A stretch of DNA of 64,000 nucleotides from Candidatus Bathyarchaeota archaeon (GCA_963733095.1 CAVTBV010000012.1:256001-320000); one strand, 5' to 3'. Counted from the first letter of the stretch, positions 40,743 through 64,000 are shown. Numbers and translations: made by a program. Notes: generated by a model not told the origin, from the sequence alone.

Positions 40743-41351
40743 TCATTTTTGAGATAACAATCTTTCCGCAAGCTGGAGTTCTGACACCGTGTTTATGTTC
40801 ACGGCCAATTCCTCGTTGTTCATGAGGAATATGTCTTGGTCGAGCCATTCGTCACCATACCGTTTGTGTCCGTCGATAACGTTGATCCCTACTGGAACGA
40901 CGTCTTTGTTGTCGGCTTTGAATGAGTATTCGATACACATACCCAACTTTGCTTTGGTTTCAAGCGGAACCGCAACGGTTAGGGCAGGTTTGCCGCATTG
41001 CTCGTAACGTTCCACGACGGCATCTATCATTTTGCCCGTCACCAAGGGTAAGTCAGCTGCGACCGCTAAGAAAACGCCTAGCTTGAGCGTTTGAACGGCG
41101 TAGCCCATGTCGGAAACATAGTCTTTGCCCGGAGTTTCAAGATATTTGACCCTGAGATGTTTCATGAGTTGGGTTGTATTGGGTGTACAACTGGATGTTG
41201 CAACGATTACTGAATCGATTTTTTTGGCTTGCTTGAGCGCAGCGAGCACGTATTCAATGACGTGTTTGCCGCAAACCTTTATGAGCGGTTTTTCCTCGGC
41301 GATTTTCATGCGAGTTCCTTTGCCGCCAGCCATAACAAGCGCAACTATCAT
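40743..41351 (-). CDS. cobY: GTP:adenosylcobinamide-phosphate guanylyltransferase CobY (copy 1)
   Basis: MAGGKGTRM...EKPL, ADLP, VGINVI and NINT motifs; ATG overlaps the cobS stop. Confidence 0.85.
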   Translation of the reverse strand: MIVALVMAGGKGTRMKIAEEKPLIKVCGKHVIEYVLAALKQAKKIDSVIVATSSCTPNTTQLMKHLRVKYLETPGKDYVSDMGYAVQTLKLGVFLAVAADLPLVTGKMIDAVVERYEQCGKPALTVAVPLETKAKLGMCIEYSFKADNKDVVPVGINVIDGHKRYGDEWLDQDIFLMNNEELAVNINTVSELQLAERLLSQK

Positions 41352-42124
41352 CAAATCACCGCCAACAAAACAATAACACAAACCATCCGCGTCAACTCGT
41401 TAGTAGCACCAAAAACGTCCCCTGTAACTCCGTTGAAGTGCTTGTGGGCAACCCCAACCATAACTAAACCAGTTATTACTGCTGATAGAATGGTAAAGAC
41501 ACCTGCCCAACCCAGCAGTGGAAAAGCAATCAACACTGAAAGCACCAACGCTAAAACCAAACGCATTTTACCTATACTTCCATGCATAGCTTCAAGAAAC
41601 GATGAGTTCATGCCTTGATGGACGGATTTGCCTGCCCAAGCAGCTACCACCATTGACAGCTTTGCACACAACTCAACAACAATTAAAGCGGGAAAAATCA
41701 GGGGAACCGCGAAATTCAAAATAAATATGTGCCTTCCGAGTTCAGCGAAAGCAAACGCCGTAATTAGGTAAGTCATTACGGATAAGCCGATGGCTCCTGC
41801 ACCCGTTAACTGGTCATGCATGACCTCAATTTTATGTTCAGATGATCCATGCACCATGACGCCGTCACCGAAATCCAAAAGCCCGTCTGTATGATGTAGC
41901 CCAGTCATTAACAATAACAGAGCCAAAGCCAAAGCGCCGACCACAAGACCTGGCAAAAACTCAAGAACCACCCAGCTGAACGAACCTGCCAACAAACCGA
42001 GAAAAGCGCCGAGTAATGGGAAAGCCCACATGTTTCGGGCGCAGTCAGTAAGCAGGTCTTTGTCCATAGCAACTGGAAAAACGGTTAAGAAGGATAGGAG
42101 GTTCTTTAGTTCTTTAACAGCCAA
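41351..42124 (-). CDS. cobS: Adenosylcobinamide-GDP ribazoletransferase CobS (copy 1)
   Basis: FLT, TGLHHTDGLLDFGDG, MHD..TGAG and GVTGDVFGA motifs. Confidence 0.92.
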   Translation of the reverse strand: MAVKELKNLLSFLTVFPVAMDKDLLTDCARNMWAFPLLGAFLGLLAGSFSWVVLEFLPGLVVGALALALLLLMTGLHHTDGLLDFGDGVMVHGSSEHKIEVMHDQLTGAGAIGLSVMTYLITAFAFAELGRHIFILNFAVPLIFPALIVVELCAKLSMVVAAWAGKSVHQGMNSSFLEAMHGSIGKMRLVLALVLSVLIAFPLLGWAGVFTILSAVITGLVMVGVAHKHFNGVTGDVFGATNELTRMVCVIVLLAVI

Positions 42125-42131
42125 GCGCGTG

Positions 42132-43220
42132 TCACTTTATGCCCATCAGTAGAGCATAGTTACGCTCTATTTCCTTAAGAAGTATATCCTTGGTGATTGC
42201 GCTGCCTGTCTTGGCCATCGCTGCGATTGATGCACCGCCAGCGCCAACACCTTCCTTGACCAAGCCTGTTTCGTAGATTTGAAGGCCTGGATACTTTGAG
42301 GGACCAAAATCCAAGTCGGCTGCTAAAACTGGCACTTCACAGAACTGTTTTGCGATGCCACAGATGTCTGAGTTCTTGTCTTTTACAACCCACCTTGTGG
42401 TGCCAACAGCTACGTTACAGAGCGATTTGGGAGCCAAAGCGCTAATTATTGCTAAAACCGCGGTCATCTGGGTGCCGCCAGCCATCAGAACAGGTCCCTG
42501 TCTTGCGCCGCCTATGACTAATCCAGCCATCGCCGCCATCATGGGGTCGCCAACACAGGAAACTGCTTTTAGAGGGTTGTTTTTTAGGCTGCCGAATTTT
42601 TCTTTTGCCGCCTTCAAACCTGCCTCAACCACTTCTGCCTTGAGGCTATGGGGGTTTTGGGGCAGGGTGCTGCTGACTTTTCCCTGCGCATCCACACCTA
42701 ACGCTGAGAGAACGCCAAGCGCAGTTGTAGTTCCGCCTGGAATACTCTCGCCGATAACCAAATAATCAGACGCTTTCGCGAGTTGTTCGCCTAAAATCTT
42801 AGCGCGCTCCACGACTTCTTCGACGTTGTCAACTGAGTCGCCGCTTCGGATGTCTCTGCCGGAGCTGCCGCCTAAATCCACATAAGGAATCTGCGGCTTA
42901 ACCTTCACACCTCCATTAACCACCAACACTGGGATGTCACCTAAATGCAACGCCGACATCGTGATTAAGCCAGGTGTCGGAATCCCATCAGGGGTAATTG
43001 GGACACCTGCTATAGATTTGCATTTACCAAGCAAAAGCAGCTCCGCATCTGCAGGAGGCGTAAAATCTGTAAAATCCGGGTTCATCCCGGCGGCAGATAA
43101 ACCGGGGATTTTCGCCGTTTCTGTAGTTGCAATGGTGCAGAGGAATAGGGGTTTTTTGCCTTCGATTTCGTCTAAAAAGGCTTTTGCTTTAAGTTCATTA
43201 TTCGCAATCAGGACATCCAT
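42132..43220 (-). CDS. cobT: Nicotinate-nucleotide:base phosphoribosyltransferase, archaeal CobT
   Basis: IPGLSAAG, GESIPGGTTTA, AGGTQM and KEGVGAGG motifs. Confidence 0.9.
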   Translation of the reverse strand: MDVLIANNELKAKAFLDEIEGKKPLFLCTIATTETAKIPGLSAAGMNPDFTDFTPPADAELLLLGKCKSIAGVPITPDGIPTPGLITMSALHLGDIPVLVVNGGVKVKPQIPYVDLGGSSGRDIRSGDSVDNVEEVVERAKILGEQLAKASDYLVIGESIPGGTTTALGVLSALGVDAQGKVSSTLPQNPHSLKAEVVEAGLKAAKEKFGSLKNNPLKAVSCVGDPMMAAMAGLVIGGARQGPVLMAGGTQMTAVLAIISALAPKSLCNVAVGTTRWVVKDKNSDICGIAKQFCEVPVLAADLDFGPSKYPGLQIYETGLVKEGVGAGGASIAAMAKTGSAITKDILLKEIERNYALLMGIK

Positions 43221-43231
43221 ATAGTTTCCCT

Positions 43232-43903
43232 TTACTTGGGCACAACTTTGAATTCCTTAATCTCTAAGTACCCAAAGCCGCCGTCAAGCTTAAGTCTCTG
43301 TGATTCAACAATTTCAACCTTTTTCTTGAAACCTGGCCCATCAGTTATGACTGTATGATATTCACCGCCTTCTCCGCAAGCATCTACATTGCCAAGTTTT
43401 AGGATATCGTCGTAGAATTGCCTATCGAGTACGCGTCCAAGCCAATCCACGCCAAGCAGTTCCAATTTGGTGCGGACTACAGTGGCTTTGAAGCCTGTTT
43501 TGAGGTAGTCGAGATAGATTTGTTTTGTGTCGCCCATCCACAGTGGCTTGACGGGTGTTAAGCCAACTTCTTTGCAGATGCGTCCAAGCCAACCTTCTTC
43601 ATGCCCAGCGACTTCATAGATGTCGCCAGTAACTAAGCCTTCCGCGCCTCGGGACTTGCACTCATAGAGCACGGCTTTGAAGTCGTTCTCGTAGGTCTGG
43701 GGGGATGTGGGTTTTTTTATCAGGGGAATCCCGATAGCTTCAGCTTGTGCGTCTAGGATGCCTGAGGGTATCATATGGAAGTTTGATTTGGTTTCGCTCA
43801 TCATCATAGTTAACAGGTTGATTACTTGGTGGCCTTGCTGGGTGGCCAGGTAGAATGCGTAGGCGCTGTCTTTGCCCCCACTCCATGAAGCAATAACTTT
43901 CAT
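43232..43903 (-). CDS. DUF71/COG2102 (Dph6-family) PP-loop ATP-binding protein
   Basis: SWSGGKDS, PLW and CGEGGEYHT motifs; first gene of the cob operon. Confidence 0.85.
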   Translation of the reverse strand: MKVIASWSGGKDSAYAFYLATQQGHQVINLLTMMMSETKSNFHMIPSGILDAQAEAIGIPLIKKPTSPQTYENDFKAVLYECKSRGAEGLVTGDIYEVAGHEEGWLGRICKEVGLTPVKPLWMGDTKQIYLDYLKTGFKATVVRTKLELLGVDWLGRVLDRQFYDDILKLGNVDACGEGGEYHTVITDGPGFKKKVEIVESQRLKLDGGFGYLEIKEFKVVPK

Positions 43904-43923
43904 CTTAAATTTTCCTCCTATGT

Positions 43924-43970
43924 ATCTTCACCGTTATCCGTTATTTGGGTTACGGGTTCAGGTGAAAGAT
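43924..43970 (-). promoter_or_regulatory. Stem-loop in the 5' leader of the DUF71-cobT-cobS-cobY operon
   Basis: ATCTTCACC...CCGT / ACGG...GGTGAAAGAT inverted repeat, a few nt upstream of the GGAGG RBS on the minus strand. Confidence 0.35.
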
Positions 43971-44211
43971 GAAACTACATATTTATTGTAAACACACTTG
44001 TATAAATAACTGAGCTTTTACTATGCAAACAGCCACTTAACTTCCTTTTCGATAAAAGTTTGATTGGAATAACCCAAGTTTTATTGATGTTCAGCAAATC
44101 ACCATGCAGAGCATTTGGTAGTCAATGCACCCTTTTCCATGAGAGCAAGTGTAAACCACTCCGCACAACCCTTAAAACAGACTGCGTCTCTAAAAAATGA
44201 GGTTAAAACCC

Positions 44212-44694
44212 ATGACAAACCAAACCTCACCAATGTTAACTTACCTCGAAGGCAAAGGCATCACCCTAAAAAGCCTCATCGACAGCGCCCTCGAAATGTA
44301 TGTTCCCCACCCGGGCGTAGAAAACTTTGAAAAAGCAACACAAATGCTCAAAGAAGAATTCCTCGATATACTCACAGACGTCAACGTTAACACGCTCATT
44401 GTTGCCGCTTTCCATGCTCAGGAAGAAGCTGAGAACGGTCGGATTCCAGGCTTAACGAAGGAGAGGTTTTTGGGCAGACCCGGATTGGTTGCAGATGAAC
44501 TCATCGGCATAGCCATAGCAACATACATCGGAGGTTCCAAGGGTATGTTTGAGTTTGTACGGTTTGATCAAACAAAACCAGGCATCCTAAAGGAGTTGCC
44601 GCCGCTCACTAATGATGCAATCGGCGCGTTGGTAGCGGGTGCATCCTCGAATGTCTATACCAGAGCCCTGAAAAGTGCAGGCCTTCCACCGTAG
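44212..44694 (+). CDS. cobZ: Alpha-ribazole phosphatase CobZ (PgpA-like)
   Basis: ALEMYVPHPG, DVNV, LVADELIG..IATYIGG and FVRFDQTKPGIL motifs. Confidence 0.85.
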   Translation: MTNQTSPMLTYLEGKGITLKSLIDSALEMYVPHPGVENFEKATQMLKEEFLDILTDVNVNTLIVAAFHAQEEAENGRIPGLTKERFLGRPGLVADELIGIAIATYIGGSKGMFEFVRFDQTKPGILKELPPLTNDAIGALVAGASSNVYTRALKSAGLPP

Positions 44695-44805: not shown

Positions 44806-45963
44806 ATGGTTCAAACTCAGCTCTGCATTGTTACACACACTTTTCTGCCGCATGTAGGCGGGATAGAGAAGGTGGTTAATGAACAAAGCAAGCGGCTGCG
44901 AACAAAAAACTTTGAGCCCACGGTAGTTACTAACAGGATAGGCACTCCCAAAAACTACAAGGTTGACGGGGTACCCGTCGAATGCTATGAATCCCTCAAC
45001 ACTGGCTTTAGGCTGGGAATTCCATATTCGATTCCAACTATTGCAAGTTTTCCAACTTTTATTAAAACAGTAAACAAGAGCAAAATAATCCACGCACACG
45101 GACACCCCTACCTAACCTCGCTCATCGCGGGTAAACTTGCCAAAATTTACGCTAAACCCTTGGTTTTAACCCAGCATAACACCTTCATCGAGTACAACAA
45201 CATGTTTGACACAGTCGAAAACTTGAACGACTTCACCGTTGGAAAACAAAACCTAAAAAACGCCGACAAAATAATCGCCATCAGCAACGCTACAAAAGAG
45301 TATGTTCTAAGGCTAGGTGCAAAACCAAAGAAGATAAGAGTTGTCTACAACGGTGTTGATTTGGTTAGGTTTCGACCCATAGCGGGAAAACGTGAGGAAA
45401 TGCAAAAAAAACTCGGAATCCCCAAAAACGCCATCGTCGTGTTGACTGTGCGACGGTTGGTTTACAAGAACGGTATTGACACATTAATCGACAGTGCGAA
45501 CATTGTGATTAAAAAGAATCGGCGGATTGTGTTTTTGGCTGTTGGGAAAGGTCCTGATTCGGACGATGTCAAGTTGAGGATACAGCAGTTGGGGATTGAC
45601 GGAAACTTCAAGCTCGCAGGCTTTGTCAGTGATGAGGATTTGCCGTTCTACTACAACGCGGCGGACTTGTTTGTGTTGCCTTCTAAGTCGGGTGAAGGGT
45701 TGCCTTTGGTCGCGATGGAAGCCATGGCATGTGGGCTACCGGTTGTCGCTACAGATGTGGGGGGAATACGAGAAGTGTTGATAAATGATTACGGAAAACT
45801 GGTGCCGCCCAACCAGCCAGAGCTGCTTGCAAGGGCAATTTTGGATTTTGCAGCGCTTGATTTTTCTTCACGCAAAAAAGACCTCCGTGCTATGATGGAA
45901 GAAAAGTTTAGTTGGGACACAAATGTTGCGAGACTTGTGGAAATATACGAAGAACTTATTTAA
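44806..45963 (+). CDS. GT4 glycosyltransferase
   Basis: PHVGGIE, YNGVD and EGLPLVAMEAMACG motifs. Confidence 0.9.
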   Translation: MVQTQLCIVTHTFLPHVGGIEKVVNEQSKRLRTKNFEPTVVTNRIGTPKNYKVDGVPVECYESLNTGFRLGIPYSIPTIASFPTFIKTVNKSKIIHAHGHPYLTSLIAGKLAKIYAKPLVLTQHNTFIEYNNMFDTVENLNDFTVGKQNLKNADKIIAISNATKEYVLRLGAKPKKIRVVYNGVDLVRFRPIAGKREEMQKKLGIPKNAIVVLTVRRLVYKNGIDTLIDSANIVIKKNRRIVFLAVGKGPDSDDVKLRIQQLGIDGNFKLAGFVSDEDLPFYYNAADLFVLPSKSGEGLPLVAMEAMACGLPVVATDVGGIREVLINDYGKLVPPNQPELLARAILDFAALDFSSRKKDLRAMMEEKFSWDTNVARLVEIYEELI

Positions 45964-46007
45964 CCATGTAACGGAAACATATTAGCCTTTGAAATGGAAG
46001 TTAACTG

Positions 46008-46742
46008 ATGACGTCAAAAGTTGAAATGGTTTCGGTGGTAATTCCAACACTCAATGAAGCAGGAAACATTCAGGAAGCAATAGAAACCATCCAAAGCGAC
46101 CTTACCTATCCTAAAGAAATCATAGTTGTGGACGGTAATTCTACGGACGGGACCAAAGAAATCGTTCAGTCCCTGGGCTATTGCAGGCTTATCGTGGAGC
46201 CTCGCCGCGGGTACGGTTTAGCTTTGATGACTGGGATGAAGAACGCTAAGGGTAACATCATCATAATGGTGGATGGAGACGGCACATACGAGTTTCGTCA
46301 CATGAATCGCTTAATAGATGCCATGCTTGAAAAAAACGCTGACATGGTTTTAGCCACCCGCATGTACGACCCCAACAAAGCCATGGGACTCATGAACTTT
46401 ATCGGCAACAAAGTAATCACAACCTTCTACGATTTCTTCTTTAGCCAATTCCTCAGCGACACCCAATCAGGTTTCCGAGCTATATCCCATGAAGCCATCA
46501 ACAAGGTGGAACTCAAAGCATACGACATGGCTTACGCAACAGAGATGCTTATCCAATTCGCCAAGGAAGGCTACAGCATGATTGAGGTTCCCACAACCTA
46601 CAAAACCCGTAAGTATGGGAAACCTAAACTGAGAAGATTTAAGTCTGGAATAGAGATATTTAGCACTATGTTTAGAGGATTTCTGGATGCGGATACGTTT
46701 AGAAAGTGCCAGGAGAATTGGAAGCAAAATCGGGTTAAATGA
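46008..46742 (+). CDS. GT2 glycosyltransferase (DPM1-like)
   Basis: VVIPTLNE, VVDGNSTDGT, DGDGT and DTQSGFR motifs. Confidence 0.9.
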   Translation: MTSKVEMVSVVIPTLNEAGNIQEAIETIQSDLTYPKEIIVVDGNSTDGTKEIVQSLGYCRLIVEPRRGYGLALMTGMKNAKGNIIIMVDGDGTYEFRHMNRLIDAMLEKNADMVLATRMYDPNKAMGLMNFIGNKVITTFYDFFFSQFLSDTQSGFRAISHEAINKVELKAYDMAYATEMLIQFAKEGYSMIEVPTTYKTRKYGKPKLRRFKSGIEIFSTMFRGFLDADTFRKCQENWKQNRVK

Positions 46743-47208
46743 AGAAAAAGGCTATGCAGTCGCCATTTTTCTTGCTTTAATCATCGTTTCCGCGACAGTC
46801 TTAGGCTACTATTTTGTGCTAAGGCCACAGGCTGCACCCTACAATACCATCTATCTGTTGGACGCTGACAAAAAAGCTGTGGATTATCCGCAAACTTTAG
46901 TAGCGAACCAAAACAGTACTTTTAGCGTATATGTCGATGTAGAAAACCACATGACTACAACCGCAAGCTATCAAGTGCAAGTAAAAATTGCACAGAACCT
47001 CTCCACTTTCCCAGTGGATAATCAACCCATTCAAATCATAGAAACAGGCAATGTTAACAACAACGGAAAACCAATAGAAAAAACAGCAACTATCACAATA
47101 AACACGCTTGGAAGCTACTCTGTGGTCTTTGAACTCTGGCAACATAAAGACGGCACCCTCGAGTTCACTCAAGACTACTGCGTTCTAAACATTCAAGTGA
47201 TAAGCTAA
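46687..47208 (+). CDS. DUF1616-like membrane-anchored Ig-fold protein
   Basis: TM helix, then YNTIYLL...DYP...VENH...FELW pattern. Confidence 0.65.
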   Translation: MRIRLESARRIGSKIGLNEEKGYAVAIFLALIIVSATVLGYYFVLRPQAAPYNTIYLLDADKKAVDYPQTLVANQNSTFSVYVDVENHMTTTASYQVQVKIAQNLSTFPVDNQPIQIIETGNVNNNGKPIEKTATITINTLGSYSVVFELWQHKDGTLEFTQDYCVLNIQVIS

Positions 47209-47295: not shown

Positions 47296-48765
47296 TTAGG
47301 ATGGCTTTTTGTGTCTTTGCGCATAAGCTTTCTCGATGGCTACTCGGTGGACGTTGTTATAGGCGCAGAACGGAATAATCTTGAGGTCTGGCGTAATATA
47401 ATGAACGACGCATCGGCGGACGCGGTTAACGTCGAAATTATAGGAATCCATGAATGCCATGCAACCCAACAAGAAGATTCTTCTTCGGATTTTGCCCAGC
47501 GACTGGTAAGAAGGCGCAAGATGCATACGCATAATTGACTTCATCAGAGTTGGCATGCCAACTTCTTTGGTAACCAGTAACATATCCATTGAAAGCATTG
47601 AAGCCATAAACAGCGATGAGAGAAGAGACATTTTGCCCTTAGATTCAGCTGTTTCGGCGGTTTTGCGGATGCTGTTGAAGAAGCGGTCAAAGTTTACGAA
47701 GCGGTTGATTGGGAACATTTTGCCGCTCTTGGAAACGTACACCCAGTTGACGATTCCGCATTGGGGACTGCAGGAGAAGAGGGGCCAGGGTTTCTGCATA
47801 AACTTACGCATGATTTTAATCGGCGAAGTCATCACGGACATGGGATATAGGTCAGTGGCTTTTACTTCACCGTTTGTTTGTTTTTCCACATCTTCGGCAA
47901 AGCTCCATTCGCGGAAGTTTTCTCGGAATGGGTTCTCGGTTGCTCTGCCCGTGAAGGCGATGGGTTGGAAGATTAAGCCGCGAACGATGTCAGTGTTTTT
48001 GGCGGCGAAATGTATCATGTCGCCGACTTCTGTGTCGTTGAGGCTTTTCATGAGGGTATTGACAAGGATGATTTCCATGTCGTATTTGCGGCAAACATCG
48101 ATTGCTTTGAGTTTCATATCTAAGAGTTCTCGTCCTCTAACTTTGCGGTTGAACTCTTCATGGAAACTGTCGAAGGACAAGTAAACGATGTTTAAGCCGC
48201 TGTCTTTGAGCCTCTTTGCTAAACCTGGTGTGTCAACGAGATGTGTCCCATTGGTTGCCAGAATAGTCATGAACTTTAATTGATGAGCAGCCGCGATGAT
48301 TTCTGGCATGTCCTCGCGTTCAAGGGGTTCGCCGCCCGAGAAAAGAATTGCAGGAGGTTTGGGGTTTGCTTTGGCTGCGAACTCTAGCATTTTTATGAGG
48401 GCTTCTTTGGTGGGTTCATAGTCTGCTTCTTGATTTGGAAAAGTGCTAAAGCAAACGGCACATTTGAAGTTACAGCGCTTAGTTACGTCGATTACGCCGA
48501 TGACTGTGCCAGATGCGTGTTTGTCGCAGGTTTCACATTTGTAGGGGCACCCTTCGGGGTTTTTGGGTGCAGTTAAGTCGCCAAGGTATTGGAACTGGTC
48601 GTACTTTTGCATGTGGTTGTAGATTGGTACGCTTTGCCAGTGGGTAGCATGGAATTCGCCGTGTTCAGGGCACTGCTTGCTTATTTGGATTTTACCGTTG
48701 GACTGGGCTAGTTGGGCGTCGATTTTCTTTTGGCATTCAGGGCAGATGCTTTTGGTTTCGCTCAT
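47296..48765 (-). CDS. tes: Tetraether lipid synthase (Tes/GDGT-MAS) family radical SAM enzyme
   Basis: TKSICPEC...CPEHG metal domain, CPYKCETCDKH, CNFKCAVC, SGGEP, FSCSPQCG and GCMAFMDSYNFD..RVRRCVVHY...IIPFCAYN. Confidence 0.8.
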   Translation of the reverse strand: MSETKSICPECQKKIDAQLAQSNGKIQISKQCPEHGEFHATHWQSVPIYNHMQKYDQFQYLGDLTAPKNPEGCPYKCETCDKHASGTVIGVIDVTKRCNFKCAVCFSTFPNQEADYEPTKEALIKMLEFAAKANPKPPAILFSGGEPLEREDMPEIIAAAHQLKFMTILATNGTHLVDTPGLAKRLKDSGLNIVYLSFDSFHEEFNRKVRGRELLDMKLKAIDVCRKYDMEIILVNTLMKSLNDTEVGDMIHFAAKNTDIVRGLIFQPIAFTGRATENPFRENFREWSFAEDVEKQTNGEVKATDLYPMSVMTSPIKIMRKFMQKPWPLFSCSPQCGIVNWVYVSKSGKMFPINRFVNFDRFFNSIRKTAETAESKGKMSLLSSLFMASMLSMDMLLVTKEVGMPTLMKSIMRMHLAPSYQSLGKIRRRIFLLGCMAFMDSYNFDVNRVRRCVVHYITPDLKIIPFCAYNNVHRVAIEKAYAQRHKKPS

Positions 48766-50605: not shown

Positions 50606-50653
50606 CCAAATCACGACAAAGCCTATATTCCCTATTGGTAAGGTTGTAGGTAT

Positions 50654-56001: not shown

Positions 56002-57194
56002 CGCAATGCTTCATCATAGACTTCCATAGCATCCTTGACGACTATGCGCCAATCATAGTTCTCCACGATTGTCTTCCGTGCCAGTTCACCCATCTCCCGG
56101 GCGAATGCAGGATGCTCAAGCAGGTACAATATTTTTTCGCCAAACATTTTGGGATTGAAGGGCTCTACCAAAAACCCATTCTTGCCGCTCTCAATCGTTT
56201 CGGAAATACCGCCTACCGTAGTTGTGACCACTGGTAAGCCCGTTGAGAGCGCTTCTAAAACAGCGAAGGGATGGTGCTCATAAAAGGTGGAGAACGCGAA
56301 GGCGTCTGCGGCTTGGTAGAGCAGGGGCAGTTTCTTGTCTGGGTAGTAGCCTGTAAAAACGATGTTGTTTTTGACGCCAAGTTTGTCTGCGTGGGCAATG
56401 AGTTTGTGCATTTCGTCGCTTTGCCCCTTCCCCGAGATGATGAATTTGGCGTTTGGAAAACGTTTAACGACGGCAGGCATGCTTTCGATGAGTGCGAATA
56501 AGCCCTTGCGTGCGTAGAGTCTGCCGACGGAGACTATGGCTAAGTCTTCGGGGTTAAACCCGAGTTCCGCTTTGACTTTGCGTTTGTCAGGGGCTGGTTT
56601 AAACTTGTTTATGTCCACGCCGTTGTGGATGACCCGTATCTTGTTTTCGGGAATCTTGTAGTAGTTTGTGAGCTCCCACTTTGTGAAGTGGCTGACCGCG
56701 ATGATTTTCCTTGCTCGCTTGAGCATGCCTTCCTCGAAGAACCGCAAAAACCAGTTGAAACTAACCAGAAACTTTTCGTTGGCGTTTAAGCGGCTGTAGG
56801 GTTCGCCGCGGATGGCTTCGGCTTCGCCTTTCCATGTGGAATGGACAGTGCATACGAGGGCTTTGCCAAAGTTAGGTGGCACTGCAAAGTTGGGGGTTAG
56901 GGGGAGTTGGGGATGGCTGATGTCGACGTTGGCTGTTTCTTTGACCCTTTGGAGTTTGCGGTTGCTGTTGGCTGCAAGGATGAAGGATTTGATGATGGGC
57001 ATTTTTGGGATTTTCAGAAAAGACACGTCGAGCTGTGGGCTAACGTGGATGTCTTGGGCTTGATTTGAACCTGTGACGACGTAGATTTTGTAGCCGTTTT
57101 TCAGGAGTTCGTTGCTGAGGTAGTAAACGTAGGCGCCCGTTCCGCCAGACAGCGGCCAGTATTCAGGTGAGATAAAGCAGACTTTATGCGACAT
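55998..57194 (-). CDS. GT4 glycosyltransferase
   Basis: EYWPLSGG, HNGVD, VGRL..RKG and EHHPFAVLEA motifs. Confidence 0.9.
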   Translation of the reverse strand: MSHKVCFISPEYWPLSGGTGAYVYYLSNELLKNGYKIYVVTGSNQAQDIHVSPQLDVSFLKIPKMPIIKSFILAANSNRKLQRVKETANVDISHPQLPLTPNFAVPPNFGKALVCTVHSTWKGEAEAIRGEPYSRLNANEKFLVSFNWFLRFFEEGMLKRARKIIAVSHFTKWELTNYYKIPENKIRVIHNGVDINKFKPAPDKRKVKAELGFNPEDLAIVSVGRLYARKGLFALIESMPAVVKRFPNAKFIISGKGQSDEMHKLIAHADKLGVKNNIVFTGYYPDKKLPLLYQAADAFAFSTFYEHHPFAVLEALSTGLPVVTTTVGGISETIESGKNGFLVEPFNPKMFGEKILYLLEHPAFAREMGELARKTIVENYDWRIVVKDAMEVYDEALR

Positions 57195-58184
57195 TTACTT
57201 GTTCCTCCCTGATAGATATTTTGCTGTAGTTATAACTGCGCCGACAAACCAAGCTGCCGACCTCACGAAATAGAGCACGAATAAGCGCATAGCTGTCGAG
57301 TCATGGAACTTTACAGATAGGTTCACTGCTGAATAAACAAAGTAAACAACCATAGCCAACAAAATTAACCCTGAAACAACCCACAGCAACCTAAGCAATG
57401 GAACGATTCCCAAAAGGAACGACACGATAACTGCCAAAATGAGCACGGGCTGGACATTCATTCCAACATCCGTAATTTCATCGCCCCGCGCTAGGCGTCC
57501 GTGTTTGAAGTAGAGTTTAAGAGTATTCTTGCCGTACTGCAACTGCTGCCGATAATATGCCTTCAAAGTTGGGCGGTTAAAATGATAGCAGACAGCGCTG
57601 GGTTCATAGGCGATTCTGTAGCCTTTGGCACTTATTCTATATCCAAGGTCGGTGTCGTATTGGCTGGGAAGTTTCTCATCCCATCCGCCTACCTCCTCGA
57701 TTACAGATTTTTTTAGGAGCAGGTTCATGGTTGCTATTCGTCCAGTGTATTTGCCTATGCGTCGGTAGCGGTTTTTTAGTTCATACCCGATGCTTCTTGC
57801 CCACGGATTCTTGTTATTCCATGTCTCTATGCTGCCGCTGACACCTGCCACATGAGGGTCCGCAAGGTTTGGCGAAAGTTTGGTTAGCCATTCAACCTCA
57901 ACCTTGGCGTCTGCATCTATGAATCCCAAAACGGGGTAAACTGCGATTTTCATGGCGTAGTTGTAGGCTGCAGGAGCGTTGAGGCGGATGGAAACAACTT
58001 TTATTGGAAATTTCTCTGCGATTTTGACTGTGGCGTCGTTGCTACCGCCGTCCATAACGATGACTTCAAAACTGTCGCTAGGATAATTTTGAGCCAAGAT
58101 AGATTTGAGGCATTCTTCGATGGTGTCTTGGCTGTTGTAAGCTGCAACTATAATTGAAAACTTGAGGAGTGAGTTGTCAGCCAT
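57195..58184 (-). CDS. GT2 glycosyltransferase with C-terminal TM helices
   Basis: SIIVAAYN, DGGSND, FIDAD and QQLQYG motifs. Confidence 0.9.
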   Translation of the reverse strand: MADNSLLKFSIIVAAYNSQDTIEECLKSILAQNYPSDSFEVIVMDGGSNDATVKIAEKFPIKVVSIRLNAPAAYNYAMKIAVYPVLGFIDADAKVEVEWLTKLSPNLADPHVAGVSGSIETWNNKNPWARSIGYELKNRYRRIGKYTGRIATMNLLLKKSVIEEVGGWDEKLPSQYDTDLGYRISAKGYRIAYEPSAVCYHFNRPTLKAYYRQQLQYGKNTLKLYFKHGRLARGDEITDVGMNVQPVLILAVIVSFLLGIVPLLRLLWVVSGLILLAMVVYFVYSAVNLSVKFHDSTAMRLFVLYFVRSAAWFVGAVITTAKYLSGRNK

Positions 58185-58187
58185 TGT

Positions 58188-58886
58188 TTACCCCTTCATG
58201 TAAGCTAAGATTATTGATAGGAGAATTTTGGAGCCGTCCATCATTGGGTCTACGCCTGAGTGTCCATAAGTGCGTTGTTCAAAACTAATCGGTACCTCGG
58301 CGACTCGGAAGCCTTCTTTGGCGGTTTTTACGAGCATTTCGGATTCGATCTCGTATCCGCCTGACTTTAGTTTTTGTTTGCTTAGGATTTGGCGTTTCAT
58401 GGCGCGGTAGCCTGATTGGGAATCGGTTATGGTTGTGCCTGTTAGGAGTTCGATGAGGAAGTTGAAGATTCGTACGCCAAACGCGTTGAGTTTTCGTGCT
58501 GCCACGTTTTTCTGGTTCAGGTATCTTGAGCCGATGACCATGTCGACCCTGTCGGCTAATACTGGTGTGAGCACACGGGCGAGTTCTTCGGGGCGGTGGG
58601 AAGCGTCGGAGTCAATCGTGATTATTATGTCGCCTTTAGCTTTAGCGAACCCAGCCCGAAGTGCGTAGCCTTTACCGCAATGCTCCTTTAACGTTAAAAG
58701 CCTGCAACCGTGTTTTTTAGCCACTTCAAGCGAGCGGTCGCGAGAATGGTCATCAACAACGATTATCTCATATGGCAAGCCGATTTGCTGCATAGCCATT
58801 TTGGTGCGGTCGATAATGTTGCCTATGGTTAATTCCTCGTTGTACACGGGAATTATGACAGAAAGCAGCATTTCCCTTGGGCTCAT
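58188..58886 (-). CDS. GT2 glycosyltransferase (DPM1-like)
   Basis: VIIPVYNEE, VVDDHS, DSDASH and DSQSGYR motifs. Confidence 0.9.
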   Translation of the reverse strand: MSPREMLLSVIIPVYNEELTIGNIIDRTKMAMQQIGLPYEIIVVDDHSRDRSLEVAKKHGCRLLTLKEHCGKGYALRAGFAKAKGDIIITIDSDASHRPEELARVLTPVLADRVDMVIGSRYLNQKNVAARKLNAFGVRIFNFLIELLTGTTITDSQSGYRAMKRQILSKQKLKSGGYEIESEMLVKTAKEGFRVAEVPISFEQRTYGHSGVDPMMDGSKILLSIILAYMKG

Positions 58887-58969: not shown

Positions 58970-59524
58970 ATGGAAACCAAATCCAAACTTAAAGTTGAAG
59001 GGGACCGAAAGGTCTGGTTTTCCATGTGGTTTCTGGGAGCAGTTGTCACTTTTGGCGTCGCATTCTTTCCCATGTTTTATCGTTTAGTCGAGGGCAGAAA
59101 CAGACATTTTCAAAATGAGGCTGAGTTTGAGGAGCACATTGAGGCTTACTCAAAAAGGAAAAGCAAGGAGCCGCCAACAAAAACTGAGCAGTTTAAAGCT
59201 ATGAATTCGAAGGCATGGGCAGCCAGCATTATCATTGTGGTGCCCATTTTTGTTATCGTCTATTTGCTGTCCAGAGATTTAGCAGTTCATGAACGCAACC
59301 AAGATGCTTTTCTTGCATCCGCCCTGCCAGAACGAGTTTTTATGCCACAGACAATACCTATAAAAACTTACATTTTGATAACTGTTATCACCTTGGGCGT
59401 TGGGGTCATCTACTGGCTCTACAAGGTGGTTAACTTGTATAACGCTCACTTTAAAGCGCATCTGCAGGTGGAGAAAGAAATGATTCGGCTGATGGAGGAA
59501 AAAAAAGTTGTCGAGCACATGTAA
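58970..59524 (+). CDS. DUF4234-like membrane protein
   Basis: Repeated VTFGV / ITLGVGVIYWLYK..N.YNAHF helices. Confidence 0.6.
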   Translation: METKSKLKVEGDRKVWFSMWFLGAVVTFGVAFFPMFYRLVEGRNRHFQNEAEFEEHIEAYSKRKSKEPPTKTEQFKAMNSKAWAASIIIVVPIFVIVYLLSRDLAVHERNQDAFLASALPERVFMPQTIPIKTYILITVITLGVGVIYWLYKVVNLYNAHFKAHLQVEKEMIRLMEEKKVVEHM

Positions 59525-60626
59525 AAAACGCAGGTTCGTTAGCCACGGCGGAGACATTTGGGGCTTTAGCAGAAAATACAACCTTCCCCTCGAAGAAGTG
59601 CTTGAGTTCAGCGGACCAATAAACTACCTTGGACCACCCCAAAAAGCCTTAGAGGCAGTAAAGCAGTATGCAAAGTTAATCCGTTATTATCCTGACCCAA
59701 ACCCTGTCGAATTCAAAGAGGAAATAGCAAAGTACGTCGGCAACGGCATTAACGAAGAAAATATCCTCTTGGGCAACGGCTCAATTGAGCTAATTTATAT
59801 GATAACTGAGATTCTGCCGCGCGGTCACAAAGCAGTAATCCCTATACCTTCATTCTCAGAATATGAGAAGGCAACCCTGCGTGTGAGCGGCGAACCCATC
59901 TTTGTCCAGTTACCAGAAGACTTTTCTCTTGACTTAGACAAAATCAAGAAGGCAGTTACCGACGACACAAAAATCATGTGTCTTTGCAACCCCCATAGCC
60001 CTTCAGGTACACTCTACAGCAAAAAAGAACTCTTAGACCTTGTGGAGTTCTGCAACAAAAAAGACATCATCTTCAGCATAGATGAGAACTATATTGAATT
60101 TGCCAACCAGAGCTTGGCCAACACTTTGGCTGGCAGGGTTAAAGACTATGAGAACCTTTTTGTGATTCGTTCTGTCACCAAGTTCTATGGCATGGCAGGC
60201 ATCCGCTTCGGATACGCTATGGCTGCGGGAAACCTAATCGATAAGTTGAAGACTATGCGACTTCCATGGAGCATCAACGGATTAGCATGCCAAGTAACAG
60301 TGGCAGCCATAAACGACACCGAATTCATACAGAACACTAAAGAAACAATCTCTAAGAACCGTCAAGAGCTCACTCAAAACCTCGGTCAAATCCCAGGTCT
60401 ACACGTTTACCCATCAGTTACGAACTTTTTGCTTGTAAAAATAAAGAACCACAAAATCACATCCACCATGCTAAAGGAACTTTTAGCTAAAGAACGCATC
60501 TTAATCCGAGACTGTTGCACGTTCATGGGCATGGACGACAGCTACTTCCGAATCACAGTTCGCTCAGCAAAAGACAACCAACAACTCGTACAAAAAATAA
60601 AACAAATATTGAGTAACGCCCCCTAA
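59508..60626 (+). CDS. cobD: Threonine-phosphate decarboxylase CobD (PLP class I/II)
   Basis: HGG, YPDP, GNGSIELI, CNPHSPSG, DE, RSVTKFYGMAGIRFGY and ILIRDC motifs. Confidence 0.8.
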   Translation: MSSTCKKRRFVSHGGDIWGFSRKYNLPLEEVLEFSGPINYLGPPQKALEAVKQYAKLIRYYPDPNPVEFKEEIAKYVGNGINEENILLGNGSIELIYMITEILPRGHKAVIPIPSFSEYEKATLRVSGEPIFVQLPEDFSLDLDKIKKAVTDDTKIMCLCNPHSPSGTLYSKKELLDLVEFCNKKDIIFSIDENYIEFANQSLANTLAGRVKDYENLFVIRSVTKFYGMAGIRFGYAMAAGNLIDKLKTMRLPWSINGLACQVTVAAINDTEFIQNTKETISKNRQELTQNLGQIPGLHVYPSVTNFLLVKIKNHKITSTMLKELLAKERILIRDCCTFMGMDDSYFRITVRSAKDNQQLVQKIKQILSNAP

Positions 60627-60920
60627 CATTTCGTTTGTCTTTTTCTGATAATAGGGTGAGAGCCTCATCACTTTTGTAGACTATTATGATCTTAATAATG
60701 GTTCTATGCAGAACTATAGAGGATCCACTTCCTATAAGAAGGGTAAAGTCAAATTGGCTGAAAACTAACTCATTAGCATATCGAAAATACCCTGAAAATG
60801 AGGCAATTTTGGCAAGAACATCAAGAACCAGAGATAAACTCTCAGCAGTCCCCTGTTCCGTTAAAGCTATAAAGTGCGCAAACATCAAAAGGAAACAACA
60901 ACTTGCTCAGAGGCAAAACC

Positions 60921-62348
60921 GTGCCCAAGAAATCTCGACCAAAAAATTCTAAGCCCAAGTCCGAAAACAAAACAGTCCTGCTCATGACCACGGCGCCCCC
61001 TGAAAATGGTGCATGGTATCTCGGAAAACGGTTGCCTCCAATCGGCTTAATGTACGTTGCAGCTGCCCTTGAAAAAGCAGGTTTCCAAGTTAGCATGCTT
61101 GACAACTACCTTATGAAAAAGTCGCTTGAGGAAGTCAAACAGTTAGTTACGAGCACAAACCCGGGAATTGTCGGAATTACTTGCGGTTCAGCCACTTATC
61201 GGCGATGCATAGAAACCGCTAGAGCTATCAAAGAAGCTCTGCCGACCTGTAAGATTGTTGTGGGCGGCTGGCATGCGTCTTATGTACCTGATAGTTTACT
61301 TGAGACCCCAGAGATTGACTACGTCGTTATGGGTGAAGGTGAGAGGGCAGTTACGGAGCTTGCCAAATGCATCGTAGGCGACAATGAAGCAGTCGCAATC
61401 ACAATACCTGGCGTAGCATGTAGACGAGCAGGAGCAAACATCAAAAATCCACCCACATTCATAGAAAACATGGATGAGATTCCATATCCTGCAAGGCACC
61501 TTTTGCCGCTCGAACTCTATGACCGCACCATTGAATACTTGGATGCCAAACCCGCCGACGTCATGAGCATCGCCCGAGGATGCGTATTCCATTGTGGCTT
61601 CTGCGAAACCCGCAAGCTGTGGGGAAACATATGCCGAGGTTTCAGCCCACAAAGAGTCATCGGCGAAATCAAAGACCTACAGAAAAAATACGGCACAAAA
61701 GGCATCTACTTCATCAACGACAACTTTACCCTCAGAAAAAAAGAAGCCACCGAACTCTGCAATCTCATGATTGAAAACAAGCTGGATTTGGAATGGGTCT
61801 GCGACACCCGCGTGGACCTTGTTAACGATGATCTTCTAGCGTTGATGAGTAAGGCCGGATGCAAAACTATCTGGTTTGGCGTCGAATCGGGTTCACAGAA
61901 AGTCTTAAACCGCATAGGAAGAGACACAACACTTGCACAAATTGAAACTGCGTTTAAGCTCTGCCGCAAAAATAACATAAAAACCGCATGCTCATTCATG
62001 CTGGGCGTCCCCGATGAAACATTAGAGGACATGGAGGCCTCACTAAAGTTCGCGAAGAAACTGAACCCAGACTGGTGCATATTCAACGTCTTCATCGCCA
62101 ACCCAGACAGCAAGCTGTACCAGGAAGTTTTAGATTCTAAAAAATATGATCAGCTGGACGAGTTTTTGCTTAGTGTAAAAACCGACGAGTACGACTTCAA
62201 GTCGCTTATGGCGGTTCAGCGGCGGTTCTTTAAAGAGTTCAACATGACGTCTAAACAAATCCTTAAACGTGTTCGACGTGAAGGTCCTCTAAACTTTGCT
62301 AAACGCAGACTTCTAGGCGGAACACGCAAAAGCACTGGTGTAGCTTAA
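60921..62348 (+). CDS. Cobalamin-binding (class B) radical SAM protein
   Basis: PPIGLMYVAAAL, VGGWHAS, GEGE, RGCVFHCGFC, NDNF and GVESG motifs. Confidence 0.9.
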   Translation: MPKKSRPKNSKPKSENKTVLLMTTAPPENGAWYLGKRLPPIGLMYVAAALEKAGFQVSMLDNYLMKKSLEEVKQLVTSTNPGIVGITCGSATYRRCIETARAIKEALPTCKIVVGGWHASYVPDSLLETPEIDYVVMGEGERAVTELAKCIVGDNEAVAITIPGVACRRAGANIKNPPTFIENMDEIPYPARHLLPLELYDRTIEYLDAKPADVMSIARGCVFHCGFCETRKLWGNICRGFSPQRVIGEIKDLQKKYGTKGIYFINDNFTLRKKEATELCNLMIENKLDLEWVCDTRVDLVNDDLLALMSKAGCKTIWFGVESGSQKVLNRIGRDTTLAQIETAFKLCRKNNIKTACSFMLGVPDETLEDMEASLKFAKKLNPDWCIFNVFIANPDSKLYQEVLDSKKYDQLDEFLLSVKTDEYDFKSLMAVQRRFFKEFNMTSKQILKRVRREGPLNFAKRRLLGGTRKSTGVA

Positions 62349-62360
62349 AGGGGAACTGTC

Positions 62361-63446
62361 TTGCTGAAGCGAAGGCTGGGCAGAACAAACCTGCAGGTCT
62401 CTCAAGTTGGTTTTGGCGGAACATGGATATCTGAACTCAGCCTGCCTGAAGCTGTTAAGGTAGTTAGAAGAGCTTTTGATTTAGGCATCAACTATTTTGA
62501 CACCGCAAAACTTGATGGCGACAGTGAAGAAAAAATCGGTTTAGCCCTCCAAGAAGTTAGAGACAAATGCATAATTGCCACCAAGACAGGTTCACGAACA
62601 AAAAGAGAATCCCTCGAAGACTTCAAAAGCAGCCTAAACAGACTCAAAACAGACAGACTAGACATCATTCAGCTTCACGGAATAGACGACGAAAAAACCC
62701 TTGCCAAAGCCATCGGAGAGGATGGTTCACTGCAAACCTGCAAAGAAGCACGAAAACAGGGGCTGGTGGATTTTATCGGTATTACGGGGCATAAGCCAAG
62801 GATTCTGGTTAAGGCAGTTTTGAGCGGCGAATTTGATACAGTGCTTGTTCCCTTAAACGTTGTAACCCGCCAGGCGCTTGAGGAGTTGGTGCCAGCCGCG
62901 AAAGCGCATGATGTTGGGATTGTGATTATGAAGCCGCTTTCAGCTAAAACCTCCACCTTAATCACCTGCCTTTACCAACCGTCGCTTTCGCTGGTTTCTG
63001 ATGAACCAGAACTCAAAGCCCTGCTGGGTAATGATGCCAATGAGATGGTTAACAACGCCTTAAGATACGTTCTGTCGCAGGATGTGGCCACTGTGATTCC
63101 CGGGTTAAAATCAGTCAGTGAAGTTGAAACCGCAGCTAAAGCAGGCGAACAATACACAGAATTAACACCCAAAGAAAAAGAACATTTCAGCTTTAGCCTT
63201 GGAACAAGCTACTGTCGAGAATGCGGACAATGCCGCCCCTGCCCCCAAAACCTCAACATCGCGGCAATTCTGCGATTTCATACGCTCTATGAAGCTTATG
63301 GTTTGAAGGGTTGGGCTAAAAAACTCTACAATAGCTTAGAAGTTAAAGCTGACAAATGCACCATATGTGGCGAATGCGAAGTGACATGTCCCTATCAGTT
63401 ACCTATTGTAAAGATGCTAGAAAAAGCAAAACGAGATTTTCAATAG
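62361..63446 (+). CDS. Aldo/keto reductase with C-terminal 4Fe-4S dicluster
   Basis: GINYFDTA, IATK, QLHG and MKPL; CRECGQCRPCP...CTICGECEVTCP. Confidence 0.9.
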   Translation: MLKRRLGRTNLQVSQVGFGGTWISELSLPEAVKVVRRAFDLGINYFDTAKLDGDSEEKIGLALQEVRDKCIIATKTGSRTKRESLEDFKSSLNRLKTDRLDIIQLHGIDDEKTLAKAIGEDGSLQTCKEARKQGLVDFIGITGHKPRILVKAVLSGEFDTVLVPLNVVTRQALEELVPAAKAHDVGIVIMKPLSAKTSTLITCLYQPSLSLVSDEPELKALLGNDANEMVNNALRYVLSQDVATVIPGLKSVSEVETAAKAGEQYTELTPKEKEHFSFSLGTSYCRECGQCRPCPQNLNIAAILRFHTLYEAYGLKGWAKKLYNSLEVKADKCTICGECEVTCPYQLPIVKMLEKAKRDFQ

Positions 63447-63456
63447 CTTTTGGCAA

Positions 63457-64000
63457 CTATTTTTTTGCTATCCAATAACTCATTTCAGGTCTGCATAAAA
63501 GCCTGTAAATCGGAAATAGCGGGTTTGGAATCCATGTGGCATGCGGGTAGTAATCTGTCCGTTTAGAATATTCAAAGCCTTCTTCTTTGAAGACCTTTGC
63601 TATGGCGTGGTGGTTTAGGGCGTGTTCTTTTTTGTGCCAGTAATCTGAGAGGGTGTAGTCGATTGTGGGAACTCGTAAGCCTATGAGTTGGAAGTATAGG
63701 CTGTTTATGATGGGGCTTGAGTGAAAGTATATGCCTTTAACGAGGCTGGCAAGGCTGCTGTGCTCGTTTCCCCAGTAATAGGGCGAGGCTTCATGGTCAA
63801 TGTACATTACGCCGCCCTTCTTTAGGAACCTAGAAAGAGTTTGGAGCGCGGTGAGGTAATCGGGCAAGTGGTGTAGCACCGAATAGAAGGTTACTAAGTC
63901 AAATTTGCCCTCGCTAAAACCCAAGTCCTCAATAGGTGAGTTAAGCACGGTTAACTTTTCTGGTATGCAAGCGTGGTATTTCTTTTTTAGAATGGTGCAC
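63457..64000 (-). CDS. Class I SAM-dependent methyltransferase, 5' end outside the window
   Basis: FDLVTFYSVLHHLPD...LKKGG motif. Confidence 0.8.
   Translation of the reverse strand, partial: CTILKKKYHACIPEKLTVLNSPIEDLGFSEGKFDLVTFYSVLHHLPDYLTALQTLSRFLKKGGVMYIDHEASPYYWGNEHSSLASLVKGIYFHSSPIINSLYFQLIGLRVPTIDYTLSDYWHKKEHALNHHAIAKVFKEEGFEYSKRTDYYPHATWIPNPLFPIYRLLCRPEMSYWIAKK

Follow-up and report, generated by a model that had tools for sequence, protein, structure and literature searches.

Second copies of cobamide nucleotide-loop genes lie in a lineage-restricted lipid and glycosylation island of Bathyarchaeia

Why should genes of cobamide assembly alternate with genes for tetraether lipids and glycosylation? 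The question is raised by a 64-kb stretch of a Bathyarchaeia genome (CAVTBV010000012.1:256001-320000 of GCA_963733095.1, or G000:C12:256001-320000 in our numbering), hereafter the window. The genome, G000, belongs to a soil archaeon and is a 2.84-Mb assembly in 16 contigs, 95% complete; the public records of its close relatives carry the titles of Bathyarchaeota or Bathyarchaeia metagenome-assembled genomes, Ca. Bathycorpusculum species among them. The original prediction, made from the sequence of the window alone, read both gene sets as one locus coupling cobamide supply to the synthesis of a modified, glycosylated tetraether. The analyses presented here indicate another answer. The stretch is the junction between ordinary cobamide nucleotide-loop and salvage genes and a lineage-restricted accessory island of second copies. 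The reading that we prefer, with a probability of roughly 0.4, is that a repurposed branch with the paralogs CbiB2 and CobS2 would link a group, through an aminopropanol-phosphate bridge, to a glycolipid made with the second tetraether synthase (Tes2) and a second UbiA prenyltransferase (UbiA2).

Gene calls in the window were checked with Pfam and NCBIfam profile scans, and the equivalog cut-offs given below are those of NCBIfam. The scans recovered every gene that the prediction had named at its position, the five glycosyltransferases (GTs) included, and the cobamide and lipid/glycosylation gene sets do alternate (Table 1). A tblastn search of the whole G000 genome with the cluster proteins revealed two copies each of CobS, CobY, CobD, CbiB, Tes and a UbiA prenyltransferase resembling digeranylgeranylglyceryl phosphate synthase (DGGGPS). 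The first cobamide set is completed outside the window by CobD1 (TIGR01140 303.7 bits, cut-off 290.55), which stands beside CbiB1 (above the TIGR00380 cut-off) on contig C13. According to Pfam, all four protein families of the second set belong to cobamide loop assembly (CobD, CbiB, CobY/CobU, CobS, CobT, CobZ/CobC), and the set repeats the cobS>cobY order with overlapping stop and start codons of set 1. It differs from ordinary loop assembly in lying beside a complete first set, in having no second cobT, in an altered motif and an insert in CobS2, and in its fixed neighbours, which are Tes2, UbiA2, a short-chain dehydrogenase/reductase (SDR) and GTs instead of cobT. The cobT gene was single-copy in each of the five relatives searched. 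Within the island we distinguish block A, with the lipid genes, CobS2 and CobY2; block B, which ends in CobD2; and block C, outside the window, with CbiB2, five to six class B (B12-binding) radical S-adenosylmethionine proteins (rSAMs), a second SPASM rSAM, an amidohydrolase and an Fe-S aldo/keto reductase.

The island is restricted in its distribution, which was surveyed in 151 Bathyarchaeia genomes from 79 genera, G000 included. Some Tes occurred in 132 of these genomes, as against 15 with a Tes2-type protein (at least 470 bits; all others at most 377). The same 15 genomes carried a CbiB2-type protein (at least 404 bits; others at most 245), a CobD2-type protein (at least 323; others at most 302) and the class B rSAM that follows CbiB2 (at least 490; others at most 289). 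As for the CobS2 type (at least 145 bits), 14 of the 15 had a full-length protein and the remaining one, G179, a fragment at a contig end beside CobD2. These genomes represent six genera of two families in one order, namely five genera of the window's family and genus g16 of another. With the queries used, neither the island markers nor canonical CobS or CbiB were matched in four further genera of the window's family and in one further genus of the second. The original prediction had also raised a connection with butanetriol dialkyl glycerol tetraethers (BDGTs) or glycerol monoalkyl glycerol tetraethers (GMGTs), for which we found no evidence. The presence of the island in 6 of the 79 sampled genera, all in the window's order, does not suggest a link to BDGTs, which in Bathyarchaeia have been attributed to the marine Bathy-8 genus Baizosediminiarchaeum, citing Dong et al. 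2025, in reviews that place subgroup 6 in a different genus (PMC12694404, PMC13003381). No BDGT enzyme is named in the accessible portion of a 2025 preprint (10.1101/2025.10.20.683597).

Gene neighbourhoods were compared in 18 same-genus loci, with 20 kb fetched around CobS2, and in wider scans of genome and metagenome contigs, which gave 184 loci with a CobS2-type gene, 100 of them assessable (at least 4 kb on both sides). Many of the loci come from close kin and in some cases the same genome was reached twice, and the counts describe conservation, not independent trials. Tes-UbiA-SDR adjoined cobS2-cobY in 18 of 18 same-genus loci. GT4b-GT2b-GT2c lay within the 20 kb in 15 of them, and the order and content of this group, together with the adjoining membrane protein, were kept in 15 of the 18 as well as in G040, G132 and metagenome lineages. 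Among the 100 assessable loci, Tes/UbiA/SDR genes stood within 4 kb of CobS2 in 99, CobY within 1 kb in all, and GT or DUF1616 genes within 8 kb in 90, whereas cobS1 or cobT was found within 10 kb in only 53. When the loci were sorted by CobS2 identity to the window copy, lipid-gene adjacency held in 22/22 (at least 80%), 62/62 (60-80%), 7/7 (45-60%) and 8/9 (below 45%). In G040, a complete genome of the other family, a 17-kb stretch bounded by GatB contains, in an order different from that of the window, the SPASM rSAM, GT4b, GT2b, GT2c, the small membrane protein, CobD2, CobY, CobS2, Tes2, UbiA2, SDR, DUF1616 and GT4a, whose proteins are 27-54% identical to those of the window; cobS1 lies 47 kb away. 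GT4a, GT2a and DUF1616 are kept beside Tes2 in the genus, in genera of family f1 and in g16, and the SPASM gene of block B in f1 and g16; DUF362 is missing in G040 and present in g16-like metagenome contigs. A unit of lipid, glycosylation and 'cobamide' genes has thus been kept across two families in rearranged order. To this extent the predicted co-localisation passes the synteny test suggested with it. What accompanies the lipid genes, however, are the paralogs CobS2, CobY2, CobD2 and CbiB2, and the canonical set is a variable neighbour; two systems meet here instead of forming one pathway.

The island arrangement is far from chance. It could still lack any coupling, in which case a second cobamide branch, a further lipid-core pair, a glycan pathway and genes for rSAMs and pyrroloquinoline quinone (PQQ)-like propellers would be accessory pathways of their own, gained or kept in one variable region and inherited as a block. 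We consider such a patchwork unlikely. In accordance with it, PQQ-like surface proteins, class B rSAMs, DUF71 paralogs and loop genes are densely intermingled at G000:C12:296-357 kb; blocks A and B are on different contigs in genera g18 and g22; CbiB2 is 13-29 kb from CobS2 in many genomes, although contiguous with both blocks on contigs L157 and L222; and all carriers belong to one order, representing few independent events. Against it, the adjacency of CobS2-CobY with Tes2-UbiA2-SDR outlasts inversions and identities down to 34-45%, and the five markers are found in exactly the same 15 genomes (one with the CobS2 fragment). Gene order varies by lineage, with SDR and CobS2 divergent in f1 and SDR-UbiA-Tes>CobS2 co-directional in g16. 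In the divergent arrangement the two genes are separated by a gap of about 40-48 bp holding a single TATATT element, which suggests a shared bidirectional promoter and likewise speaks against unrelated neighbours. The sole exception to lipid adjacency was L156, which belongs to a lineage represented by metagenome contigs L150, L152 and L156 (lineage X). There, overlapping genes form an operon, CobS2-type > CobY > canonical CobS, immediately preceded by DUF1616 and GT4; in L152, a sister contig, CbiB and another GT4 follow the operon, a PQQ-like propeller is also present in the flanks of the lineage, and no Tes or UbiA was found in the available contig flanks.

In order to determine how far the second set departs from cobamide synthesis, CobS2 was compared with canonical CobS. 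The loop-2 motif 80-HxDxxxDxxD-89 is reported in all CobS homologues, and in S. Typhimurium CobS the substitutions D82A, D86A and D89A each abolish cobamide-dependent growth, while M104A is rescued by 5,6-dimethylbenzimidazole (PMC8092220). CobS1 of the window has the intact motif HxDGLxDxxD...MxD and groups in the tree with the single-copy CobS of other Bathyarchaeia. In contrast, CobS2 proteins of both families form one monophyletic clade (SH-aLRT, the approximate likelihood-ratio branch support, 99) on a long stem (0.83) and read HxDGLxDxGN-A...AHA where CobS1 reads HxDGLxDxxD-G...MxD. The third Asp of HxDxxxDxxD is replaced by Asn in 25 of 25 sequences of the CobS2 clade, and it is Asp in 27 of 27 CobS1-type sequences and also in E. 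coli CobS. The 25 sequences also share the change of the next Gly to Ala, the loss of the M104/D106 equivalents (M-x-D) and a hydrophobic insert of about 20 residues. All of them retain H, D, G, L and D in loop 2 as well as the loop-6 motif GxxGDxxG, in which G225, G228, D229 (the essential Asp) and G232 were invariant in an alignment including four CobS2-type sequences. A search with CobS2 of 1.84 billion representative proteins gave 821 matches at E<=0.001 and only 16 at E<=1e-30. In a comparison of 129 full-length sequences, of which 127 came from the top 150 matches and the other two from the window, the third-Asp site was Asp in 121, Asn in 7 and Glu in 1, and all seven Asn sequences belonged to the CobS2 clade. 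On TIGR00317 (cut-off 110) the lineage X copy scored 114.6, and CobS2 of G040 gave no family match at E<=1e-30. CobS2 keeps 34 clade-specific conserved columns, a pattern of changed function and not of decay, and a canonical CobS is present wherever CobS2 occurs. Judged by its residues, CobS2 departs from a defining motif of the family and appears not to be a standard cobamide synthase. Transfer of a whole foreign cobamide set was considered as a simple explanation and rejected, because the Asn signature is confined to the small CobS2 clade and so few of the proteins searched match CobS2 closely. No solved relative of CobS was found in the PDB, and an ESM Atlas search with CobS2 returned generic CobS clusters only.

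The partners of CobS2 in block A are second copies of lipid-core enzymes. Tes2 aligns over its full length (residues 6-484) with the solved synthase of glycerol dialkyl glycerol tetraether (GDGT) and macrocyclic archaeol (GDGT-MAS, PDB 7TOL; E=8.6e-113), keeps the CxxxCxxC motif and the zinc-ribbon Cys residues (PF23545) and passes the Tes model NF045702, as does its G040 counterpart (493.9, cut-off 450). It differs from the housekeeping Tes1 of the same genome (G000:C1:160462-161883; 668.4 bits on the same model, against 465 for Tes2), with which it shares 37-39% identity in tblastn, and in its far narrower distribution. The second Tes homolog of Methanosarcina acetivorans, MA_1114, resembles Tes2 in being a second copy of unclear role; it is reported to give only trace macrocyclic archaeol and no GDGT, and 22 of 322 methanogen genomes to carry two Tes copies (PMC8941075). 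UbiA2 has the DGGGPS of M. jannaschii as its best PDB match (6M31, E=5.8e-26) but scores below both DGGGPS cut-offs (PRK12882 148.8, cut-off 296; PRK12884 147.3, cut-off 269), as does UbiA2 of G040 (153.8 and 167.6 on the two models). UbiA1, on contig C3, scores higher and yet also below the cut-offs (PRK12884 235.5, the other model 182.6). UbiA2 is thus DGGGPS-like by similarity, its scores falling short of family membership. The SDR encoded next to it reaches no NCBIfam equivalog cut-off.

We propose that the second set serves this lipid. An isoprenoid ether lipid of its own, either membrane-spanning or macrocyclic, would be made by UbiA2 and Tes2 and glycosylated by the SDR and the GTs. CobD would supply aminopropanol phosphate, CbiB2 would join it as an amide to the carboxylate of a corrinoid or of a different acid, for instance a uronic acid, CobY would activate the phosphate with a nucleotide, and CobS2 would transfer the phospho-group, with a glycolipid hydroxyl replacing alpha-ribazole phosphate as the acceptor. 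We thus predict a lipid-bound group on an aminopropanol-phosphate bridge and not an extra cobamide. The proposed steps (amide to aminopropanol phosphate, nucleotide activation, phosphodiester) are those of cobamide loop assembly, and a changed CobS acceptor would be chemically modest because the normal acceptor is the ribose hydroxyl of a glycoside. The enzymes that are always duplicated are the two membrane enzymes, CbiB and CobS. A partial parallel is the glucuronamide of the C. jejuni HS:2 capsule (Cj1436, Cj1438C, Cj1435), in which an amino-alcohol phosphate is amidated to a sugar acid of a surface glycan. Cj1436 is a CobD homolog. In that bacterial pathway a decarboxylase is reported to yield ethanolamine phosphate from serine phosphate and an ATP-dependent enzyme to form the amide with the sugar carboxylate (PMC12409886); unlike in our proposal, the amide ligase is not CbiB, and the phosphate is removed and not activated and re-linked.

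Several observations weigh against this proposal. The D-to-N change of CobS2 is milder than the tested D-to-A changes. The other three loop paralogs could, by sequence, still act on corrinoids, since CbiB2 and CobD2 of G040 pass the equivalog cut-offs and CobY2 retains 28 of the 31 columns conserved in CobY1-type sequences. CbiB2 scores 233.7 on TIGR00380, and that of G040 240.6 (cut-off 165.9), with differences at 18 of the 61 positions for which conservation among CbiB1-type sequences is 90% or more. CobD2 matches the solved CobD (PDB 1LC5, E=2.6e-47) and keeps the Schiff-base Lys, with PHSPSG in place of the PNNPTG of CobD1 and the solved CobD; the sole CobD of G040 is of the CobD2 type and scores 299.4 on TIGR01140, above 290.55. 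G040 has one CobY and one CobD for two CobS and two CbiB. In a subclade of the genus (G017:C105, G006:C212 and G008), the CobY1 type stands beside CobS2 and the CobY2 type beside CobS1, the reverse of the window, a swap consistent with recombination at cobS/cobY junctions. The soluble steps thus appear to be shared or interchangeable, and both branches would then share intermediates of the same chemical type. In addition, every genome in which the island was found has canonical cobamide loop genes as well, as a cobamide role would predict; CbiB2 lies amid cobamide-dependent class B rSAMs, not lipid genes, in most genomes; the island GTs are similar to AglJ-type enzymes of N-glycosylation, and their targets could be proteins rather than lipids; and the lineages are kin with few independent events, so that the synteny may partly be inheritance.

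Some of these points would be met if CbiB2 and CobS2 still handled a corrinoid, with CobS2 attaching adenosylcobinamide phosphate not to alpha-ribazole but to the glycolipid, at a hydroxyl of its sugar or glycerol. The product would be a base-less cobamide covalently anchored to a lipid in the membrane, where it would serve the class B rSAMs of the island, which in this case would be membrane-associated. Such a lipid-anchored cobamide would account for CbiB2, CobD2 and CobY2 staying canonical with only CobS2 changed, for CobY and CobD being shareable with the normal pathway while CobS2 is tied to lipid and GT genes, and for the island sharing its distribution with five to six B12-dependent rSAMs. 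We regard it as improbable on present evidence.

Because CbiB2 lies amid five to six class B rSAMs with the distribution of the island, a cobamide-related role of the second set is conceivable, and in this respect the single-locus idea stays alive. In its refined form, the second loop set would make a cobamide, ordinary or with a variant linker or lower ligand, for class B rSAMs that would methylate the Tes2/UbiA2 lipid, form rings in it or desaturate it, and the genes would be linked by cofactor demand and not by a shared product. We hold this to be doubtful, though it deserves serious weight. The canonical character of CbiB2, CobY2 and CobD2 of G040 agrees with it, and CbiB2 has orthologous class B rSAMs on its flanks in f1 as well as in g16 (across the two families, block C proteins share 50-67% identity), one of them with exactly the distribution of the island. 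The canonical loop genes that always accompany the island may be read as support; however, with a full canonical set already in every island genome, a second line needs a reason. Known GDGT tailoring enzymes, namely Grs, Gmm and the Bathyarchaeota desaturase Ted, are described as B12-dependent rSAMs (10.1101/2025.10.20.683597), and Bathy-6 genomes are reported to be heavily B12-rSAM-dependent, each having 7-20 genes of this type alongside numerous membrane proteins with PQQ domains (PMC11697101). The island class B rSAMs resemble these enzymes in architecture (B12-binding plus radical SAM domains) and in their location near lipid genes, with Ted as the Bathyarchaeota precedent. None of them reaches the cut-off of any characterised family, the best being BchE or HpnJ at about half the cut-off. 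Moreover, CobS2 lacks the M104/D106 equivalents and the Asp that is conserved in 121 of 129 sequences and essential by alanine test in Salmonella, and CobS2-CobY is tied to Tes2-UbiA2-SDR, not to cobT/cobS1 and usually not to class B rSAMs. The class B rSAM inside the window, which the original prediction had included in the locus, is not a conserved neighbour of the block: it adjoins CobD2 in only 3 of 22 assessable loci and is the first in a run of at least eight such genes (G000:C12:316-352 kb). The reductase next to it has a 67% ortholog in the CbiB2/class B rSAM block of G040 (L118). A role of the class B rSAMs as the lower-ligand enzymes BzaD/E was rejected, all those tested scoring 97-151 bits against a cut-off of 450, and an AsnC-type gene at G000:C12:331164-332213, considered as siroheme decarboxylase AhbA/B, matched regulator models only.

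The GTs allow yet another explanation. With DUF1616 and the SPASM rSAM they might build a dolichol- or polyprenol-linked, or lipid-anchored, glycan for PQQ-propeller proteins, to which CobD2, CobY2 and CobS2 would add phospho-aminopropanol, its amine being a possible attachment point by analogy with glycosylphosphatidylinositol (GPI) anchors or archaeosortase-dependent lipid anchoring in haloarchaea, with Tes2 and UbiA2 providing the anchor lipid. GT2a and GT2c are indeed similar to AglJ and dolichyl-phosphate (Dol-P)-hexose synthases, and in lineage X CobS2 is flanked by DUF1616 and GT4 even in the absence of Tes. Beyond the window, at G000:C12:320398-355504 (L003, L117), six large PQQ-like beta-propeller proteins (845-1019 aa) carry a signal peptide, a Thr/Pro/Ala/Ser-rich linker, a C-terminal hydrophobic helix and a basic tail, which is RKRP, RKHP or RKR in five and longer in the sixth; their genes are interleaved with class B rSAMs, SPASM rSAMs and DUF71 paralogs. 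G000 also has one exosortase/archaeosortase-family gene (C1:33047-33844; TIGR04178 55.2, cut-off 23). This gene is, however, on another contig, no known CTERM sorting-domain model matched at E<=0.01 in the three PQQ-like surface proteins scanned, and CbiB2 would be left without a role. We consider protein anchoring very unlikely. About 40 kb upstream of the island, AglB (STT3) adjoins an AglH-like gene of GT family 4 (window 2470-5667), and the N-glycosylation core is therefore separate from the island GTs. The PQQ-like propeller gene between blocks A and B was present at its position in only 2 of the 18 same-genus loci (L004 and L008).

Table 1. Cobamide, lipid, glycosylation and radical SAM genes at the junction (coordinates are those of the window unless a contig is given; scores in bits).
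Feature	Coordinates	Strand	Evidence and remarks
ECF-type (energy-coupling factor) transporter module, two ABC (ATP-binding cassette) ATPases and CbiQ/EcfT subunit	37217..39676	+	Pfam ABC_tran twice, CbiQ; upstream of canonical cobamide genes, directly before cobY1
cobY1, canonical-type adenosylcobinamide-phosphate guanylyltransferase	40743..41381	-	NTP_transf_3; TIGR00454 153.3, NF045495 117.3, both below cut-offs; overlaps cobS1
cobS1, canonical cobamide synthase	41351..42124	-	TIGR00317 156.1, cut-off 110
archaeal cobT	42132..43220	-	TIGR00303 396.8, cut-off 240
DUF71 / diphthamide-synthase-like ATP pyrophosphatase	43232..43903	-	PF01902 170.5; conserved cobT neighbour
cobZ-like alpha-ribazole phosphatase	44197..44694	+	TIGR03161 139.4, below cut-off 152.5
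GT4a glycosyltransferase	44806..45963	+	Pfam/NCBIfam; block A
GT2a (AglJ / Dol-P-hexose synthase-like)	46008..46742	+	156; block A
DUF1616 membrane protein	46687..47208	+	Pfam/NCBIfam; block A
Tes2, second tetraether-synthase paralog	47296..48774	-	NF045702 465.1, cut-off 450
UbiA2, DGGGPS-like prenyltransferase paralog	48762..49673	-	PF01040; overlaps Tes2 by 13 nt
SDR (GalE/RmlB-like NAD-dependent epimerase/dehydratase)	49670..50614	-	PF01370 176.8; overlaps UbiA2 by 4 nt
CobS2, divergent CobS subfamily	50654..51487	+	PF02654 92.3; TIGR00317 107.7, just under 110
CobY2, second MobA-like nucleotidyltransferase	51484..52107	+	Pfam/NCBIfam; overlaps CobS2 by 4 nt
PQQ-like beta-propeller protein	52156..53445	-	PF13360; not a conserved island member
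SPASM radical SAM (AhbD/NirJ-like, below all cut-offs)	53619..55046	+	Pfam/NCBIfam; block B
DUF362	55030..56001	+	Pfam/NCBIfam; block B
GT4b	55998..57194	-	Pfam/NCBIfam; block B
GT2b	57195..58184	-	Pfam/NCBIfam; block B
GT2c (AglJ/dolichyl-phosphate-mannose-synthase (DPM)-like)	58188..58886	-	164.7; block B
184-aa two-helix membrane protein	58970..59524	+	block B; always beside CobD2
CobD2, threonine-phosphate-decarboxylase-like PLP (pyridoxal phosphate) enzyme	59508..60626	+	TIGR01140 282.6, below 290.55
Class B (B12-binding) radical SAM	60903..62348	+	PF02310 and PF04055; best family BchE 207.7, cut-off 481
Fe-S aldo/keto reductase, C-terminal 2x[4Fe-4S] domain	62361..63446	+	Pfam; belongs with block C
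SAM-dependent methyltransferase, 270 aa	63457..64000, past window end	-	Pfam
CbiB2	G000:C12:335805-336806, 19 kb downstream, outside window		second CbiB, amid class B rSAMs

In many genomes elsewhere in the class, the canonical cobamide set occurs alone in one cluster, as in the outgroup G081 with cobZ, cbiB, cobD, DUF71, cobT, cobS, cobY and ecfA; there, too, ecfA homologs adjoin the cobamide genes (L116). The DUF71-cobT adjacency, seen in L116, L106, L114 and L123, reaches relatives of another family, and the DUF71 gene, which stands directly upstream of cobT, may be an unrecognised cobamide gene. Three further DUF71 paralogs are found at C12:96251, C12:342198 and C12:346676, the last two adjoining class B rSAMs. 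The CobQ/CbiP model TIGR00313 gave no match above its cut-off in G000, G040, G132, G173 and G081 (best 51 bits, cut-off 309.9), whereas control genomes did give matches; either a divergent enzyme takes over this step or corrinoids are obtained by salvage.

The upstream part of the window contains archaeal housekeeping genes (topoisomerase, AglB, PolB, thermosome and Sua5). About 10 kb at window 11536-22000 have a G+C content of 33-35%, as against about 45% elsewhere, with short open reading frames only; a phage-integrase-family gene (11536-12675) opens this stretch, which is probably an integrated mobile element or provirus. Two tandem MoeA paralogs follow at 22070-24560. No tRNA genes were found in the 64-kb window.

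To our knowledge, the only known role of CobS and CbiB is in late cobamide assembly, of which they are the two membrane-bound enzymes, and a partial literature search found no paper on a lipid-associated CobS paralog or on Bathyarchaeia with a second Tes. The presence of two branches is first of all a warning for annotation, since cobS, cobY, cobD and cbiB calls count both of them and the completeness of the B12 pathway may be misjudged. Bathy-6 archaea are abundant, uncultured inhabitants of soil, peat and termite guts whose lipids are uncharacterised, and the island provides a concrete candidate locus for a polar lipid of this group, with a gene set ready for expression. If the preferred reading is true, it would be the first sign that the chemistry of CobS and CbiB, with its aminopropanol-phosphate bridge and nucleotide-activated intermediate, has been reused outside B12 synthesis.

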